A stretch of DNA of 11,265 nucleotides from Calditrichaceae bacterium (lineage in GTDB: Bacteria; Calditrichota; Calditrichia; Calditrichales; JBFXGD01), in assembly GCA_050178385.1 (NCBI GenBank), contig JBFXGD010000115.1:1-11265 (forward strand). The letters run 5' to 3'. The position numbers were made by a program, and so were the translations under genes. Positions 1,783-9,146 of the stretch are shown piece by piece. Each line of letters begins with the position of its first letter. The first letter of the stretch is position 1. The notes beneath the pieces are model-generated. The model searched no databases, had not been told where the DNA came from, and saw only the letters and a program-made list of their open reading frames with translations.

Positions 1783-1805
1783 CCATGCAATTTTGGAGGT
1801 TGTGT

Positions 1806-4800
1806 ATGAAGATTACCAATTTTTTGTTTAGTGTGATTTTCTCTTTTATGGTATTGTTAGCGCCATTGACTATCCATGCTCAGGGAGTTACAAAAGCTGC
1901 GTTAAACGGAATCGTCACCGATGACCAGGGTGTACCCCTCGAAGGGGCAAATGTTGTCGCGGTACATGAGCCAAGCGGGACGTCCTATGGCACTTCTGTA
2001 AGATCGGGGGGGGTTTTTGATATTCTTGATATGCGTGTGGGGGGACCCTATACGGTCTCAGTGACATTTGTCGGATATACTCCAATGGAAGAACGGAATG
2101 TGTTTTTAAGTTTAGGACAGACCGTCCGGATTGATTTTAAAGTACGTGAAGAAGCCCTGACAGGCGAAACCATTGAGGTAATAGCAGAGCGTGACGAGGT
2201 CATGAACAGTGACAGAACAGGGGCGGCAACATTTATCAACCCTGAAGAAGTAGCTCAGATGCCTTCCGTTAAAAGAAGCACACGGGATCTAGTCCGATTA
2301 GATCCTCGAAGTGACGGCAACTTTAGTATCGGGGGGAGAAACTGGCTTTACAATAACCTGTCGCTTGACGGTTCTTATTTTAATAATCCTTATGGTCTGG
2401 ATGATCCGTCTCCGGGCGGCCAGGCCAATGCAGAACCTGTTCCGTATGATGCCGTTGAGCAGGTTCAGGTTTCTGTAGCGCCTTTTGATGTAAGAGAAGG
2501 CGGTTTCACCGGTGCCGGTATCAATACGGTGACGAAAAGCGGTACAAACACTTTCAGAGGATCTCTCTACAGTTTTTACAGAGATGAAAATTTTATAGGC
2601 AACAAAGTTAAGGGTACAGAGGTGATCGCGAATCCTGATCTTTCTTTTAACCAATCGGGTTTTACAGTGAGTGGGCCGATTATTGAAAATAAACTGTTTT
2701 TCTTTATCAACGGTGAACTTGAGAGAAGAGATGACCCGGGGACAAATTTTGCGGCGGATCGGGACGGTAACGTTGAATTTGGGGAGTCACGCGTAAGCGC
2801 CGCAATTATGGACTCCATACGGCAAAGAATGATAGATGTGTACGGGTACGATCCGGGACCGTATGAGGGGTATGTTCATGAGACCAATAATGAAAAGCTG
2901 CTTTTCAAACTGGACTGGAACATCAATGAAAGCAATAACGCCTCTTTCAGGTATAATTATCTCGACGCGAGGCGTGATCTTCCACCTCATCCGTTTGTTT
3001 TAAGTTTTGGTGGAACCGGCCGCGGACCGAATCAGAGCAGTTTGCCTTTCAGAAATTCGGGTTATGAAATAAACAATGAACTCAATTCCTACGCGCTCGA
3101 AGTGAACAGCCGATTTGGAAAACTCACGAACCGATTCTTTGCAAGTTATAACCGTTTCCGCGATTTCAGAAATCCGTTCAGCGAAGATTTTCCTACCATT
3201 GATATCGCCGAAAACGGGGTAACCTATACCACGCTTGGAGAAGAGCCGTTTTCGATCAACAATATCCTGGATCAGGATGTATGGCAGTTTACCAATAACG
3301 TGACCTATTTTAAGGGAAAGCACGTATTGACGGCGGGAACGACTTTTGAGACCTATTCATTTTATAACTCATTCAACATATTTCGTCATGGTGTGTTTTT
3401 CCTGCCGTATTTTGTTGATTTTGAAGGCGACGGGATACCCAACGGCAGTATGTTTCCATCTCTTGATGATTTTTTTGCGGCAACGGATCCCAGTGATCCG
3501 ATTGATCTGAGAGGAATGGTTGGGAGCGGTCCATATAAAGGAGAAGATATTGATGTGGGACAGCTGGCGGTTTATGGCCAGGATGAATATTTACTCACAC
3601 CAAATTTTAATGTGAAGCTCGGGTTGAGAGTTGATGTCCCGTTTTATTTCAATGATGTGGTAGATAATCCGTTTTCAAGAGAATTGACTCTGCTGGATGA
3701 GAAGGGTAATCCTGAGACGGTAGATCAAAGCAAACTGCCGGATTCATCACCCCTGTTTTCTCCCCGATTTGGCTTTAACTGGGATGTCAAGGGAGACAGG
3801 AGTACTCAGGTTCGGGGCGGGACAGGTATCTTTACCGGACGCGTGCCGTTTGTCTGGGTTGGAAACAACATCTCCAATCCCGGTCAGAATCCAAATTTAC
3901 CGGCGCATCAAAGGTCTTTTGACCTGAATGCCATGGATGATGATTTCAAATGGCCGCAGGTATGGACGACGAACCTGGCGGTTGACCAGAAACTACCCTG
4001 GTGGGGACTGTTGGGCACTCTCGAATTTATTTATGGTGATGATATCAACTCTGTGTTTGTAAGAAACGCGGATCTCGTTAGTCCGGTACGCACTCTCCCC
4101 ATTGACGGCCGTCCTTATTATGGTGGCGCGGGGAACAATGAACTGAATCCGGATGGCGGAGCAGGAGTGTACGTTATTGATAATACCGGAAAAGGATACA
4201 ATTACAGTTTTACCGCCCAGTTGCGTAAGTCATTTGATATGGGATTAAACACAACTTTCTCGTACACGTTTCTGGAGGCGAAGAACACCCTCAAATCAAC
4301 AGAAATTGCCAGTGTTTTATGGGCTGAGAATCCAACAAAAGGTAATCCGAACAAACCGGAATTGGGTTATTCAGAGTTTGGAAACCGGCACAGGTTTATC
4401 GGCGGAGCCACCTATCGTCATGTTTGGTCAAAGAGTTGGGCCACTCATTTTGGAATGTTTTTCGAATACGCAGAGGGTAACAGATTCTTCGGCGCCGGCG
4501 GCAACAGGTATTCTTTCCTTTATTCAGGTGATGTAAACGGTGATGGAATGGCAGGAAATGATCTGATTTATGTGCCGCGCGACGAAAGTGAAATCAATTT
4601 TGAAGATTACACTGATGATAACGGAAATCTTGTCACTGCAGCGGATCAATGGACCCGGTTTAATAAATTTATCGAACAGGATGATTATTTAAAAGAGCAC
4701 CGCGGAGAGATAACCGAGCGGTTTGGCGCGATCAATCCATGGTTCAGTAATATCGATTTAAGGATTCTGCAGGATTTCGCCATTAATATGAATGGTCACA

Positions 4801-5057
4801 AACACACTTTCCAGCTTAGTCTGGATATCTTAAATGTGGCTAACCTGATCAATTCGGACTGGGGTGTGAGAGAAGTTGCCAGTTCAGCGGCTACTTCACC
4901 GCTGGAACTAGCCACCAATGAAGACGGAAGCCCCAAATTTACGGCGGGAGGAGATCCCATATTTCATTATCAGGGACCAAGCAAGACTTATATTGATGAT
5001 CCGGGACTGGATTCACGCTGGCGCGCCCAGATTGGAATCCGTTACCTGTTTAATTAA
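1806..5057 (+). CDS. Oar-like TonB-dependent outer-membrane receptor with N-terminal carboxypeptidase-regulatory-like domain
   Basis: ATG at 1806 is preceded by GGAGGT (1795-1800), so it is preferred over 1785. Signal peptide ends in IHA-Q. CarboxypepD_reg-like N-terminus 'GIVTDDQGVPLEGANVVAVHEPSGT...GGPYTVSVTFVGY'; plug motif 'FDVREGGFTGAGINTVTKSGTN'; 'GDVNGDG..NDLIYVP'; C-terminal beta-signal 'RAQIGIRYLFN'. Confidence 0.93.
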   Translation: MKITNFLFSVIFSFMVLLAPLTIHAQGVTKAALNGIVTDDQGVPLEGANVVAVHEPSGTSYGTSVRSGGVFDILDMRVGGPYTVSVTFVGYTPMEERNVFLSLGQTVRIDFKVREEALTGETIEVIAERDEVMNSDRTGAATFINPEEVAQMPSVKRSTRDLVRLDPRSDGNFSIGGRNWLYNNLSLDGSYFNNPYGLDDPSPGGQANAEPVPYDAVEQVQVSVAPFDVREGGFTGAGINTVTKSGTNTFRGSLYSFYRDENFIGNKVKGTEVIANPDLSFNQSGFTVSGPIIENKLFFFINGELERRDDPGTNFAADRDGNVEFGESRVSAAIMDSIRQRMIDVYGYDPGPYEGYVHETNNEKLLFKLDWNINESNNASFRYNYLDARRDLPPHPFVLSFGGTGRGPNQSSLPFRNSGYEINNELNSYALEVNSRFGKLTNRFFASYNRFRDFRNPFSEDFPTIDIAENGVTYTTLGEEPFSINNILDQDVWQFTNNVTYFKGKHVLTAGTTFETYSFYNSFNIFRHGVFFLPYFVDFEGDGIPNGSMFPSLDDFFAATDPSDPIDLRGMVGSGPYKGEDIDVGQLAVYGQDEYLLTPNFNVKLGLRVDVPFYFNDVVDNPFSRELTLLDEKGNPETVDQSKLPDSSPLFSPRFGFNWDVKGDRSTQVRGGTGIFTGRVPFVWVGNNISNPGQNPNLPAHQRSFDLNAMDDDFKWPQVWTTNLAVDQKLPWWGLLGTLEFIYGDDINSVFVRNADLVSPVRTLPIDGRPYYGGAGNNELNPDGGAGVYVIDNTGKGYNYSFTAQLRKSFDMGLNTTFSYTFLEAKNTLKSTEIASVLWAENPTKGNPNKPELGYSEFGNRHRFIGGATYRHVWSKSWATHFGMFFEYAEGNRFFGAGGNRYSFLYSGDVNGDGMAGNDLIYVPRDESEINFEDYTDDNGNLVTAADQWTRFNKFIEQDDYLKEHRGEITERFGAINPWFSNIDLRILQDFAINMNGHKHTFQLSLDILNVANLINSDWGVREVASSAATSPLELATNEDGSPKFTAGGDPIFHYQGPSKTYIDDPGLDSRWRAQIGIRYLFN

Positions 5058-6117: not shown

Positions 6118-6190
6118 CTCCGGCGGTAGGACTCGAACCTACAACCTAGTGGTTAACAGCCACCCGCTCTGCCGATTGAGCTACGCCGGA
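6118..6190 (-). tRNA. tRNA-Asn (anticodon GTT); CCA not encoded
   Basis: Reverse complement TCCGGCG-TA-GCTCAATCGGCAGAGC-G-GGTGG-CTGTTAA-CCACT-AGGTT-GTAGG-TTCGAGT-CCTAC-CGCCGGA-G: perfect 7-bp acceptor stem, D arm, anticodon GTT, TTCGA T-loop, discriminator G, followed by CAT rather than CCA. Confidence 0.98.
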
Positions 6191-6281: not shown

Positions 6282-7310
6282 TTATGAGATACCAACACCG
6301 GCAATAACCGCATTACACTCAGGACACATACCGTTTTGAATTTTGTTCATGAAAACCGTATGCCAGTCTCGTTCGATCAGGGCGGTGTGACATTCCGGAC
6401 AATATGTGGTTTGGCCTTCAGAATCATGAACATTCCCCACATAACAGTACTTTATGCCCATAGATTGGGCAATACTACGGGCGCGTTTGAGCGTTGCGGG
6501 AGGTGTGGAAATTTTGTCATGCATCTTGAAATCCGGATGGAAAGCGGTAAAATGTAATGGAATTTTATCACCAAGATTATTAAGAATCCATTCACACATT
6601 TTTTTGATTTCGTCATCCGAATCATTCTCACCGGGAATAAGCAAAGTTGTTATTTCAAACCAGATATTTGTTTCATGACGAAGCCACGTGAGTGTGTCGA
6701 GGACAGGACCAAGATGCGAAAATGTGAGCTTATGATAAAAAGTTTCGGTAAAGGCTTTTAAATCAACATTAGCTGCATCTATATATTTATAAACGTCCTT
6801 TCGCGCTTTCTTATCAATATAGCCGGATGTAACCATTACTGATTTGATGCCTTTATCACGGCCTATTCTGGAAATATCTATGACGTATTCCCCGAAGATA
6901 GTTGGATCATTGTAAGTATAGGCTATGGAAGGAACCTTTCTCCGGATAGCAAGATCAACCACCTGTTCAGGGGTCGCGCTCATTGCGTTTAAATCATCCA
7001 GCCGGCTTTTGCTCATTGACCAGTTCTGGCAAAACTTACAACCTAAATTACAACCGGCTGTTCCAAAACTCAGGATGGAAGATCCCGGAAAAAAGTGATT
7101 TAATGGTTTCTTCTCAATAGGATCAACCGCAAATCCCGTTGGTCTGCCGTAACCGGCGGAGTATAATTTTCCGTCTATATTTTGGCGAATAAAGCAGAAT
7201 CCTGACTGACCCGCCCCAATTTTACAGTATCTGGGGCAGAGCGTACACAAAACCCGGTCATTTTCCAGCTCTTCCCACCAGTTTGCTAATTTTAATTCGC
7301 TACTCATCAT
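6282..7310 (-). CDS. amrS: AmmeMemoRadiSam system radical SAM enzyme (PflA-related)
   Basis: N-terminal 'CTLCPRYC...GFCFIR', 'DPIEKKPLNHF', radical SAM CxxxCxxC 'GCNLGCKFCQN', 'AYTYNDP', 'DAANVDLK', 'PLHFTAFHP', 'YVGNV', and C-terminal paired CPEC...CPEC. Confidence 0.93.
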   Translation of the reverse strand: MMSSELKLANWWEELENDRVLCTLCPRYCKIGAGQSGFCFIRQNIDGKLYSAGYGRPTGFAVDPIEKKPLNHFFPGSSILSFGTAGCNLGCKFCQNWSMSKSRLDDLNAMSATPEQVVDLAIRRKVPSIAYTYNDPTIFGEYVIDISRIGRDKGIKSVMVTSGYIDKKARKDVYKYIDAANVDLKAFTETFYHKLTFSHLGPVLDTLTWLRHETNIWFEITTLLIPGENDSDDEIKKMCEWILNNLGDKIPLHFTAFHPDFKMHDKISTPPATLKRARSIAQSMGIKYCYVGNVHDSEGQTTYCPECHTALIERDWHTVFMNKIQNGMCPECNAVIAGVGIS

Positions 7311-7452
7311 AACTCAATTTTGCAAAATAAATGGTATGAAAGCAATAACCATCACTAATAAGTTTACAGCGATATTATTATAAAACGATGAATTTGGATC
7401 AAATATGCCATAAGTTAGTAGAAGTTTACAAAAAAATGATTTAATTACGATG

Positions 7453-7480
7453 ATCTTTTGAACAATTATGTTCAAAAGAT
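7453..7480. promoter_or_regulatory. Perfect 12-bp inverted repeat (candidate operator) in the divergent amrS / signalling-module intergenic region
   Basis: ATCTTTTGAACA-atta-TGTTCAAAAGAT. The right-hand part (TATGTTCAAAAGA, 7467-7479) recurs exactly at 7901-7913. Confidence 0.6.
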
Positions 7481-7579
7481 AAAAAAAACTCAAATGTTTT
7501 ACTTAGGTGTCGAAGATTATTTTAAGAAAAAGTAAATATCAGATTAGAACGAATATTTTAAGGATAAAGATAAGCTTAT

Positions 7580-7825
7580 ATGGAAGGTACAAAGGATATG
7601 ATCGGGTTGCCGACAGGAGGTCAGGACGACTATCAAAAATTTATAGAATTACTCAGAACCAGATTGAATATATTAAACGCTTCAGTTTTTTTATTGCAGG
7701 ATACTATAAATTGTGAAGATAACAAAACAAATGGATATATTAAACGTATCAACAATGAACTCGAACGTATTAGAACGTTAATAATTGATTTTCCGGAAAA
7801 ATCCAGGGGGGAAAATCAGAAGTAA
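7580..7825 (+). CDS. Small protein resembling a stand-alone HisKA (DHp) domain that lacks the phospho-acceptor His
   Basis: 'ELLRTRLNILNASVFLLQD...YIKRINNELERIRTLIIDF' follows the HisKA pattern 'HELRTPL..I.....LL......Y...I..E..RL..LI.DL'. Same strand and directly upstream of a histidine kinase. Start is uncertain (7580 or 7598). Confidence 0.7.
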   Translation: MEGTKDMIGLPTGGQDDYQKFIELLRTRLNILNASVFLLQDTINCEDNKTNGYIKRINNELERIRTLIIDFPEKSRGENQK

Positions 7826-8003
7826 AGATGTCTCTGATTTGGATACATTCACCATTGAGAAAAGATCCTTTTATATTTGCCATTTCAATTCAGATGCAGC
7901 TATGTTCAAAAGACCTTTTTAATTTTAAACGGATTAGATTGCAGGACGCATACAAGTGTTTATTTTTTTAGTATAACATAAATCAGAAAGAAATTCTTGG
8001 GAT

Positions 8004-9146
8004 ATGGAAACTAAAGAACCGCATATTTTACTTATTGAAGACGAACCGGATGTTCGGGAAAGTTATATCAGTATGCTTGATATGCTCGGCTACAATGCTG
8101 ATACTGCAGAAAACGGCATGGAAGGCCTGCAGAAAGTGATGAGTAATAATTATGATATCGTTATAACTGATTTGAATATGCCCGTTATGAATGGGCTTGA
8201 GACCCTCATGCGAATCAAGAAGAAAGCGCCGCAAATCGAAGTGATTGTTATGACGGGATACGCGACTATTGATAACGCGATCAGCGCAATGAAGCAAGGG
8301 GCTTTTGATTATATCACCAAGCCTGTATCGATCGAACATGTAAAAATTGTTTTAAGCAAATGTCATCAGCAAATTGAAGCTCATCGCGAAAACAAAAAAT
8401 TGAGGGATTTGAATACACGGCTGAGCGAATTGAATGAGCTCAAGGACAAATTTATTACTATCACGACTCATGAGATAAGAACACCGCTGGCAGTATTGAA
8501 AGGTTATTATGAGCTGATTGATTTGCAGATCGACAGAAAGGCAGATCCTGAATTAGATGAGTATATGGAAATCATGTCCGGGACAATCCAGGAAATGATT
8601 GAAATGCTTGATAGTATGCATGATTTGTCAAATTTTGACAAAGCCATCAGGGAATATAAAAACAGCGAATTTGATGTAAATAAGATACTGGAATCCGTGT
8701 ACAAAGAATTTAAGGTATTATTCGACCAGCGAAATATCTCCTTTTATTTAAGTCCTGAAAATGAATCGGCGATTGTAAATGCCGACCCGGCTTTATTAAA
8801 AAGAGCGATCAGGGAATTGACTCAAAACGCTCTTAAATTTACGGATAAAGAGGGCACGGTTACTCTTCATTTGAAAAAAATTCCACTAAAAAACAAAGTA
8901 TTTCTAATGGTAGAAGATACCGGAATCGGTATTCCGGCTCACAAAATTGATCTGATTTTTGAACCATTCTATGAAGTCCAGGATGTGATGTACCACTCCA
9001 GTTCCAAAACCGGATTTATGGGGGGCGGGATCGGGGTCGGTCTTTCACTGGTCAGGGAAATTTTAAACACCTGCGCCGGGGAAATCGCAGTCGAGAGTTC
9101 GCCTGGAAAGGGGAGTACCTTTACAATAATTCTGCCTTTGTCATAA
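8004..9146 (+). CDS. Cytoplasmic hybrid histidine kinase / response regulator (REC-HisKA-HATPase_c)
   Basis: Receiver: 'LLIEDE', phospho-Asp D56 in 'ITDLNMP', 'MTG', 'TKP'. H-box 'THEIRTPL' (H156); N-box 'ELTQNALKF'; G1 'DTGIGI'; F-box 'FEPF'; G2 'GGGIGVGL'; 'GKGSTF'. No hydrophobic TM segment or sensor domain. Confidence 0.95.
   Translation: METKEPHILLIEDEPDVRESYISMLDMLGYNADTAENGMEGLQKVMSNNYDIVITDLNMPVMNGLETLMRIKKKAPQIEVIVMTGYATIDNAISAMKQGAFDYITKPVSIEHVKIVLSKCHQQIEAHRENKKLRDLNTRLSELNELKDKFITITTHEIRTPLAVLKGYYELIDLQIDRKADPELDEYMEIMSGTIQEMIEMLDSMHDLSNFDKAIREYKNSEFDVNKILESVYKEFKVLFDQRNISFYLSPENESAIVNADPALLKRAIRELTQNALKFTDKEGTVTLHLKKIPLKNKVFLMVEDTGIGIPAHKIDLIFEPFYEVQDVMYHSSSKTGFMGGGIGVGLSLVREILNTCAGEIAVESSPGKGSTFTIILPLS

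Follow-up and report, generated by a model that had tools for sequence, protein, structure and literature searches.

The stretch of DNA analysed here (the window) is a whole contig of 11,265 bases from the draft genome (3.89 Mb, 94% complete) of a Calditrichaceae bacterium. It contains a small gene whose 81-residue product resembles the dimerisation and histidine-phosphotransfer (DHp) domain of histidine kinases and has no His, followed on the same strand by a gene for a kinase with receiver (REC), HisKA and HATPase_c domains. The pair had been singled out in an earlier reading of this DNA (the original prediction). Its features are as follows:

7580..7825, + strand: small gene (stop codon included, ATG start, from the list of open reading frames) for an 81-residue, His-less, DHp-like mini-protein
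7646..7648, + strand: GAA codon of Glu23, at the phospho-acceptor His position of HisKA (from the sequence and the hhalign registers)
7826..8003, + strand: spacer of 178 nucleotides (nt) between the small gene and the kinase gene (from the list of gaps)
8004..9146, + strand: gene for the partner kinase, 380 residues, REC-HisKA-HATPase_c (Pfam)

An in-frame stop codon lies only two sense codons upstream of the small-gene ATG, and a longer N-terminus of the small protein is therefore impossible.

The small open reading frame (ORF) was followed through 86 genomes of its phylum (Calditrichota, going by the labels of the sources), and a family set of 55 loci was assembled, comprising the window and 54 places fetched with long flanks. 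A six-frame search with the single protein gave a match at E ≤ 0.01 in 67 of the 86 genomes. With the family profile, matches at E ≤ 0.001 were obtained in 69 genomes, and in 45 of the 53 genomes of high quality. The ORF stands alone at all 55 loci, with gene models of 68-93 residues and 24-91% identity to the window protein. The ratio of non-synonymous to synonymous substitution rates (dN/dS) of the small gene was 0.056-0.109 in 7 of 13 close pairs (dS was saturated in the remaining pairs), with a value of 0.109 against the copy from the same genus. Similar values (0.031-0.068) were obtained for the neighbouring kinase in close pairs. The small ORF is a real gene under purifying selection. 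The conserved homologues with dN/dS below 1, which the original prediction had proposed to look for, were found.

Among 1.84 billion representative proteins, HMMER returned 36 matches at E ≤ 1e-3, every one of 50-105 residues, and the small protein is therefore not a fragment of a kinase. The refuting case named in the original prediction, in which all homologues are pieces of kinases, thus did not hold. A search limited to longer proteins gave a single match of 207 residues, which proved to be no fusion but the small protein itself, lengthened at its N-terminus by an unconserved stretch. In a word-based search of 5.8 billion proteins only one relative was found, 91% identical, from a Calditrichaceae genome and labelled 'hypothetical protein' by its source. 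The nearest clusters in the ESM Atlas were unnamed Calditrichota proteins; the third cluster, of 83 residues, had HisKA in 35% of its members, which is a lead only. One member of the family is labelled 'prefoldin subunit 5' by its source, probably an automatic coiled-coil label, and otherwise the label is 'hypothetical protein'. No Pfam or NCBIfam model covers the small family, in keeping with the earlier remark that no named family of such form was known. In a full-text literature search, with subscription journals outside its coverage, no account of a stand-alone DHp protein lacking His came up.

HisKA (PF00512) was the only Pfam family matched by the window protein, with 17.2 bits (E 0.0055) against a gathering score of 26.9, and hence below threshold. 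The match sets residues 25-78 on profile positions 13-64, beginning just past the His position. Across the family, 36 of the 55 members matched HisKA at E ≤ 1 (best E 8.8e-6), and the runner-up, DUF1128, was matched by 8. In the genome of the window, HisKA was matched 53 times at E ≤ 0.001, in no case in an open frame shorter than 258 residues, and 30 diverse HisKA segments from this genome were aligned for comparison. When the small family was set against these 30 domains by hhalign, the two alignments matched over 56 columns with a probability of 92%, an E value of 6.6e-7 and a score of 35.8. As controls, reversed alignments scored 12.0 and 11.9, and out of 100 column shuffles none went above 14.4. 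Glu23 falls on the sole invariant column, that of the phospho-acceptor His, and residues 23-78 cover the H-box helix and helix 2.

When the family was compared by hhalign with 51 orthologues of the neighbouring kinase, the signal was weak (E 0.012, probability 3.6%), with LRTRL placed on IRTPL and Glu23 on His156. BLASTP of the small protein against the neighbouring kinase produced no DHp alignment, its best match (E 1.8) being in a different region. Judged by these comparisons, the DHp likeness is real at the level of the family and is not specific to the DHp of the neighbouring kinase. The earlier description of a DHp-like protein is upheld at profile level by hhalign, and by the hairpin predicted by AlphaFold2 (see below). 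The by-eye alignment to the DHp of the next gene stood in part: its register was reproduced by hhalign, but the special likeness to this one kinase was not. The comparison with PF00512 that had been proposed did give a match, but one under the gathering score, and the homology is one of profiles.

AlphaFold2, supplied with the 55-sequence alignment, predicted an antiparallel hairpin of helices 15-42 and 48-79 with a mean predicted local distance difference test score (pLDDT) of 77.3, the blocks 21-40 and 51-70 reaching means of 89-94. Foldseek found nothing in the PDB at E ≤ 1e-3. Its top row was a histidine kinase (7ltq_B, E 0.37), and four of the top seven rows were histidine-kinase DHp chains, including CpxA and the EnvZ DHp, none of them significant. 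A wide search with VIA-align returned 1224 chains at Z ≥ 5, headed by unrelated hairpins and designed bundles. HK853 ranked 14th (Z 7.8, tied with unrelated hairpins and designed bundles), DesK 46th and ShkA 48th. In this search the small hairpin scored on a par with hundreds of hairpins to which it is not related.

His is absent from the window protein, which has Leu at residue 24 (His+1) and Arg at residue 28, the Pro position. Across the 55 members, the positions that correspond to functional residues of a DHp domain are occupied as follows:

Position 23, the His: Glu 33, Ser 15, Thr 5, Ala 2, His 0
Position 24, the acidic His+1: Phe, Asn, Glu, Tyr, Leu and others, non-acidic in most
Position 27, the His+4 Thr/Asn: Ser 19, Thr 14, Val 6, Ala 4, Ile 3, Asn 3, others
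Position 28, the Pro: Arg 53, His 2

No alignment column has His in more than 4 of the 55 members, and 19 members are without any His. The invariant residues of the family are Arg26 (His+3), Leu38 and, in helix 2, Tyr53, and Arg28, Ser35, Leu39, Glu60, Ile64 and Arg65 are present in at least 90%. Helix 1 contains a near-constant stretch, LRxRLN(V/I)(L/I)(N/S/G)(T/A)SxFLL. From its sequence, the small protein is a DHp homologue stripped of the DHp residues for autophosphorylation, phosphotransfer and phosphatase action. The original prediction had read Glu23 (GAA), the absence of His, Leu at His+1 and the exchange of Pro for Arg correctly in the window. Its suggestion that Glu imitates phospho-His was weakened: Glu23 is fixed in the window's order and in one further family, f5 (33 of 55), and elsewhere in the class the position is occupied by Ser, Thr or Ala (22 of 55). 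Glu therefore cannot mimic phospho-His throughout the small family. The His+4 Thr/Asn of DHp domains serves phosphatase activity. We considered a family-wide phosphatase role of the Spo0E, CheZ or HisKA-phosphatase type and rejected it, since position 27 is variable and no such family occurs among the Pfam families listed for the members.

The family profile also matches longer proteins in 14 related genomes, in open frames of 227-269 residues and one frame of 474 residues. Such relatives, in open frames of 226-270 residues, lie at four loci (L108-L111, in genomes G006, G019, G001 and G003; for example L109:1099-1794, - strand), with profile E values of 2e-7 to 8e-4. Two of them were scanned with Pfam and consist of a receiver and a HisKA domain with the His kept and no catalytic and ATP-binding (CA) domain. 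BLASTP aligned the window protein with the DHp of one of them over 45 residues (E 6e-8, 33% identity, 67% positives). By these scores, the small hairpin is nearest, among larger proteins, to the DHp of a CA-less REC-HisKA protein and not to that of the neighbouring kinase. The REC-HisKA proteins could be CA-less phosphotransfer proteins. They share with the small hairpin the lack of a catalytic domain. In contrast to it, they keep the His in an H-box of NHEINQPL type, have a receiver domain and are not adjacent to the small-gene/kinase pair. A near-full-length REC-HisKA match occurs in about 19 genomes of the window's order. A search of the window's genome with a REC-HisKA query found no full-length orthologue, the best match being a 388-residue protein with 38% identity.

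The kinase encoded downstream of the small gene has strong Pfam matches to REC (E 3.3e-30), HisKA (E 9.1e-11) and HATPase_c (E 1.5e-26), and is cytoplasmic, lacking any sensor or membrane domain. The 51 aligned orthologues all share Asp56, Lys106, the H-box with His156, Asn275 and the glycine boxes, and by sequence the kinase is a working enzyme. An orthologue with 38-90% identity lies directly downstream of the small gene, on the same strand, at all 54 loci with enough DNA; the synteny that the original prediction had proposed to test is thus conserved. At the remaining locus only 129 bases are available downstream, and the kinase is found at the start of another contig. The alignments cover 97-100% of the kinase at 52 loci; coverage is 66% at L049, which meets a contig end, and at L071 the kinase frame is broken into two parts. 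Measured from the stop codon of the small gene to the kinase start, the median gap is 17 nt (range -8 to 178, 52 loci). The longest gaps are those of the window (178 nt) and of its same-genus relative (174 nt).

At the genome level, with a threshold of E ≤ 1e-60 for kinase orthologues, a single orthologue was present in 73 of the 86 genomes. Both genes occur in 68 genomes, neither in 12, the kinase only in 5, and the small gene only in 1, where it lies at a contig edge. The flanking genes differ between clades, and thus only the small-gene/kinase pair is conserved: the radical-SAM, PfkB and ArgS neighbours are constant only in the closer families. In one family (L027, L030, L037, L038) gltX and a gene for an NtrC-type sigma-54 activator lie upstream of the pair, and in another (L041, L046, L056, L060) a REC-PAS protein is encoded downstream. 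In a third (L039, L040, L042, L050), genes for mannose-type EIIC and EIID of the phosphotransferase system and for HPr lie just upstream on the same strand, which hints at a link between the kinase and this system in that clade. In summary, the small gene is inherited and lost together with one sensor-less REC-kinase.

We favour the explanation that the small protein is a stand-alone, non-phosphorylatable DHp hairpin that acts by binding the kinase encoded next to it and tunes its output, and we put the probability of this reading at roughly one in two. The small gene would usually be co-transcribed with the sensor-less REC-HisKA-HATPase kinase. Its product retains the hairpin scaffold together with a strongly conserved polar helix-1 surface made up of Arg26, Arg28, Asn30, Asn/Ser/Gly33, Thr/Ala34 and Ser35, and may pair into a homodimeric four-helix bundle like a DHp domain. 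With no His and no degenerate CA-like domain, the small family cannot relay phosphate through His, and its action would be through binding alone. In the preferred mode, a receiver domain, in the simplest case the N-terminal REC of the kinase itself, would dock on a phosphate-blind surface of the hairpin. The kinase output would be tuned in this way, by inhibition or by activation.

Receiver docking is favoured because of the conservation of helix 1. The polar positions 30, 34 and 35 correspond to His+7, His+11 and His+12, which we take to be receiver-contact and specificity positions of DHp domains. The kinase has different residues there (Ala163 in the window's kinase, and invariant Gly167 and Tyr168), unlike those of the small family. 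In a mirror-tree comparison, the distances of the small protein correlated with those of REC (r 0.70), linker plus DHp (0.71) and CA (0.61), all of them inflated by shared phylogeny. The partial correlations given CA were 0.46 for REC and 0.47 for linker plus DHp. Prediction of a complex of two kinase and two small chains gave scores of 0.00 and 0.00, to be read against a calibration on single-chain pairs and with the fold of the partner uncertain in at least one run; these scores are evidence neither of binding nor of its absence.

Several observations weigh against the binding of the neighbouring kinase, or against its receiver as the docking partner. In the models the fold of the small protein is a generic helical hairpin, for which structure searches are not discriminating. 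The family profile found no PDB sequence at E < 0.1; the best match (0.13) was not a kinase, and no kinase was among the seven at E ≤ 10. In the window's own genome the profile recovered only the small gene itself. The small protein has thus diverged far from working DHp domains. In five genomes the kinase occurs without a recognisable small gene upstream, and it can therefore do without the small gene. Two further genomes, of the same genus as two of these five, contain altered copies: in G080 the small gene ends early, past helix 1, and the copy in G083 is diverged and 70 residues long. The small gene decays in a lineage-specific manner while the kinase persists. In the window, separate transcription of the two genes is possible, given the gap of 178 nt. 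As to the receiver, the case for it as the partner consists of the helix-1 conservation and the assumed contact sites, and the distance correlation gave no decision between REC and DHp as the part that co-evolves.

The kinase-only and decaying cases are at L112-L118 (genomes G024, G049, G065, G081, G082, G080 and G083). The spacer at 7826-8003, roughly tenfold longer than the median of the family, had no Rfam match. A scan of 7250-8050 on the + strand found no terminator-like site, and 6 promoter-like sites compared with 4.2 ± 1.7 in shuffled sequences, no more than chance would give.

The hairpin might instead, as the original prediction chiefly proposed, replace the second kinase protomer in the DHp bundle, forming a dominant-negative heterodimer in which trans-autophosphorylation or the docking of a regulator is blocked. 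This is possible, though we consider it unlikely. The small protein is homologous to DHp domains, which are dimerisation modules, and its synteny is strictly with one kinase. A precedent is provided by RetS, which is reported to disrupt the GacS dimer through a DHp-DHp interface (PMC8498467). The evolutionary distances track linker plus DHp as well as REC, and better than CA, a weak argument in view of the shared phylogeny. Against this, a hairpin that inserts into the kinase bundle would have to do so with no special similarity to the neighbour's DHp in BLASTP (E 1.8) or hhalign (E 0.012). Where the kinase has its invariant Gly167 and Tyr168, the small family has Thr/Ala34 and Ser35. In addition, the kinase dimer is probably held together also by a linker helix between REC and DHp, as its sequence suggests.

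More doubtful is a coiled-coil or hairpin protein outside two-component signalling, such as a scaffold or a chaperone-like partner, for which adjacency would reflect co-regulation and HisKA likeness distant ancestry. The generic fold, the absence of kinases from the profile matches in PDB sequences and in the own genome, and the five genomes with the kinase alone are all compatible with such a protein, as is the single 'prefoldin subunit 5' label, probably automatic as it is. But the two genes are gained and lost jointly in 80 of 86 genomes (68 with both, 12 with neither), and their adjacency is strict while every other neighbour changes. The short gaps are typical of operons, and the DHp homology is significant.

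A bolder reading, which we regard as quite improbable, would make the small protein a phylum-wide microProtein. The phosphate-blind DHp hairpin would then be a dedicated regulatory-input subunit of the sensor-less REC-kinase, capturing REC or replacing a DHp protomer, and the residue at position 23, Glu in one clade and Ser/Thr in the other, would be a fixed or switchable phospho-mimic by which the bound state is set.

We attach very little likelihood to a pseudo-substrate with a Ser/Thr switch, in which position 23 would be phosphorylated by the ATPase domain of the kinase or by another kinase and Glu would be a fixed phosphomimic. The model here is the GHKL-type anti-sigma kinases, which phosphorylate Ser on their partners. 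The restriction of position 23 to Glu (33), Ser (15), Thr (5) and Ala (2) has the pattern of a phosphosite and its mimic, and in a true DHp this is where the CA domain delivers phosphate. However, two members have Ala, and the split between Glu and Ser/Thr follows phylogeny and is effectively one change. To our knowledge, although no search was made on this point, Ser/Thr phosphorylation on a DHp is not an established activity of HisKA-type kinases, which also counts against the pseudo-substrate.

Finally, a decaying kinase remnant or a chance-open non-coding ORF, as the short length and the merely hypothetical annotation might suggest, is refuted by ORFs intact at 55 of 55 loci at 24-91% identity to the window protein, by the dN/dS of 0.056-0.109 and by the match lengths, with no longer homologue among the 1.84 billion representatives.

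The small protein was compared with known systems. With the HisKA-type DHp (PF00512) it shares a homologous two-helix hairpin, in which Arg at His+3, Leu at His+6 and the helix-2 Tyr are kept. In contrast to HisKA domains, it stands alone without CA and lacks the His, the acidic His+1 and the conserved His+4 Thr/Asn, with Arg in place of Pro. Spo0B, ChpT and PhyT are dimeric histidine phosphotransferases, DHp-like hairpins without kinase activity of their own that dock receiver domains. In these proteins the phospho-accepting His is still present, as is a degenerate CA-like domain, whereas the small family has neither; its members end shortly past helix 2 (68-93 residues), leaving no degenerate CA-like domain.

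Sda is a helical hairpin. Sda and KipI are found in Bacillota and are not known to share operons with their kinases. These small anti-kinases are described as blocking the CA-DHp contact (PMC12189002), and they resemble the proposed role of the small protein as small cytoplasmic proteins that regulate one histidine kinase by binding. Unlike the small protein, they are not DHp homologues, and their action is described as coming from outside the bundle. The members of the family matched 67 Pfam families at E ≤ 1, and the Sda and KipI families are absent from the 25 of these that are listed; no direct profile comparison was run.

Non-phosphorylating DHp domains that serve as binding modules are also described. 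The same source presents DivL as a pseudo-kinase employed as a regulator (PMC12189002), and DivL and RetS on GacS are alike in using such a DHp to control a kinase or to read a receiver (PMC12189002, PMC8498467). These are large multidomain membrane proteins, whereas here a bare hairpin has its own gene beside its presumed target. Eukaryotic microProteins, such as the Id-type HLH proteins, are small single-domain paralogues that keep the dimerisation module and have lost the functional residues. They differ in fold, domain of life and pathway, and the analogy is one of logic only.

The following features lie elsewhere in the window:

602-1366, - strand: DUF3124 protein (Pfam E 8.1e-47)
1785-5057, + strand: 1090-residue ORF with the look of a TonB-dependent-receptor-type outer-membrane protein, by eye only
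6118-6190, - strand: tRNA gene (Rfam RF00005, 70.7 bits)
6282-7310, - strand: gene for a radical-SAM enzyme of 342 residues, divergent and upstream of the small gene

The DUF3124 gene and the 1090-residue ORF fill the left part of the contig. The tRNA gene sits between a gene for a HAD-family hydrolase and the radical-SAM gene. The radical-SAM protein has a Cys-rich C-terminal tail with weak zinc-ribbon matches, and its gene recurs at this place in some members of the window's order (17 of the 54 loci fetched), outside the conserved pair. Among public sequencing runs, parts of the window were detected in six DNA runs, one of which contained 0.92 of its words, and no RNA run was listed as containing it.

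In conclusion, the small gene encodes an unannotated His-less DHp mini-protein, which we would group with kinase accessory proteins and pseudo-kinase modules. The family marks a blind spot in the annotation of small signalling proteins. The control of histidine kinases is usually ascribed to sensor domains of their own or to accessory proteins that are not related to them. In this case, across a whole phylum, a sensor-less kinase is paired with what appears to be a free-standing inactive copy of the kinase dimerisation hairpin. If the microProtein reading were true, it would add a new layer of two-component control derived from the kinase's own dimerisation module. If the small protein binds the kinase or a receiver, it would be a natural case in which a pared-down, inactive version of a signalling enzyme's own interaction module regulates that enzyme. 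Such a protein could help to explain how partners are chosen in two-component systems, and kinase modulators could be designed on its template.

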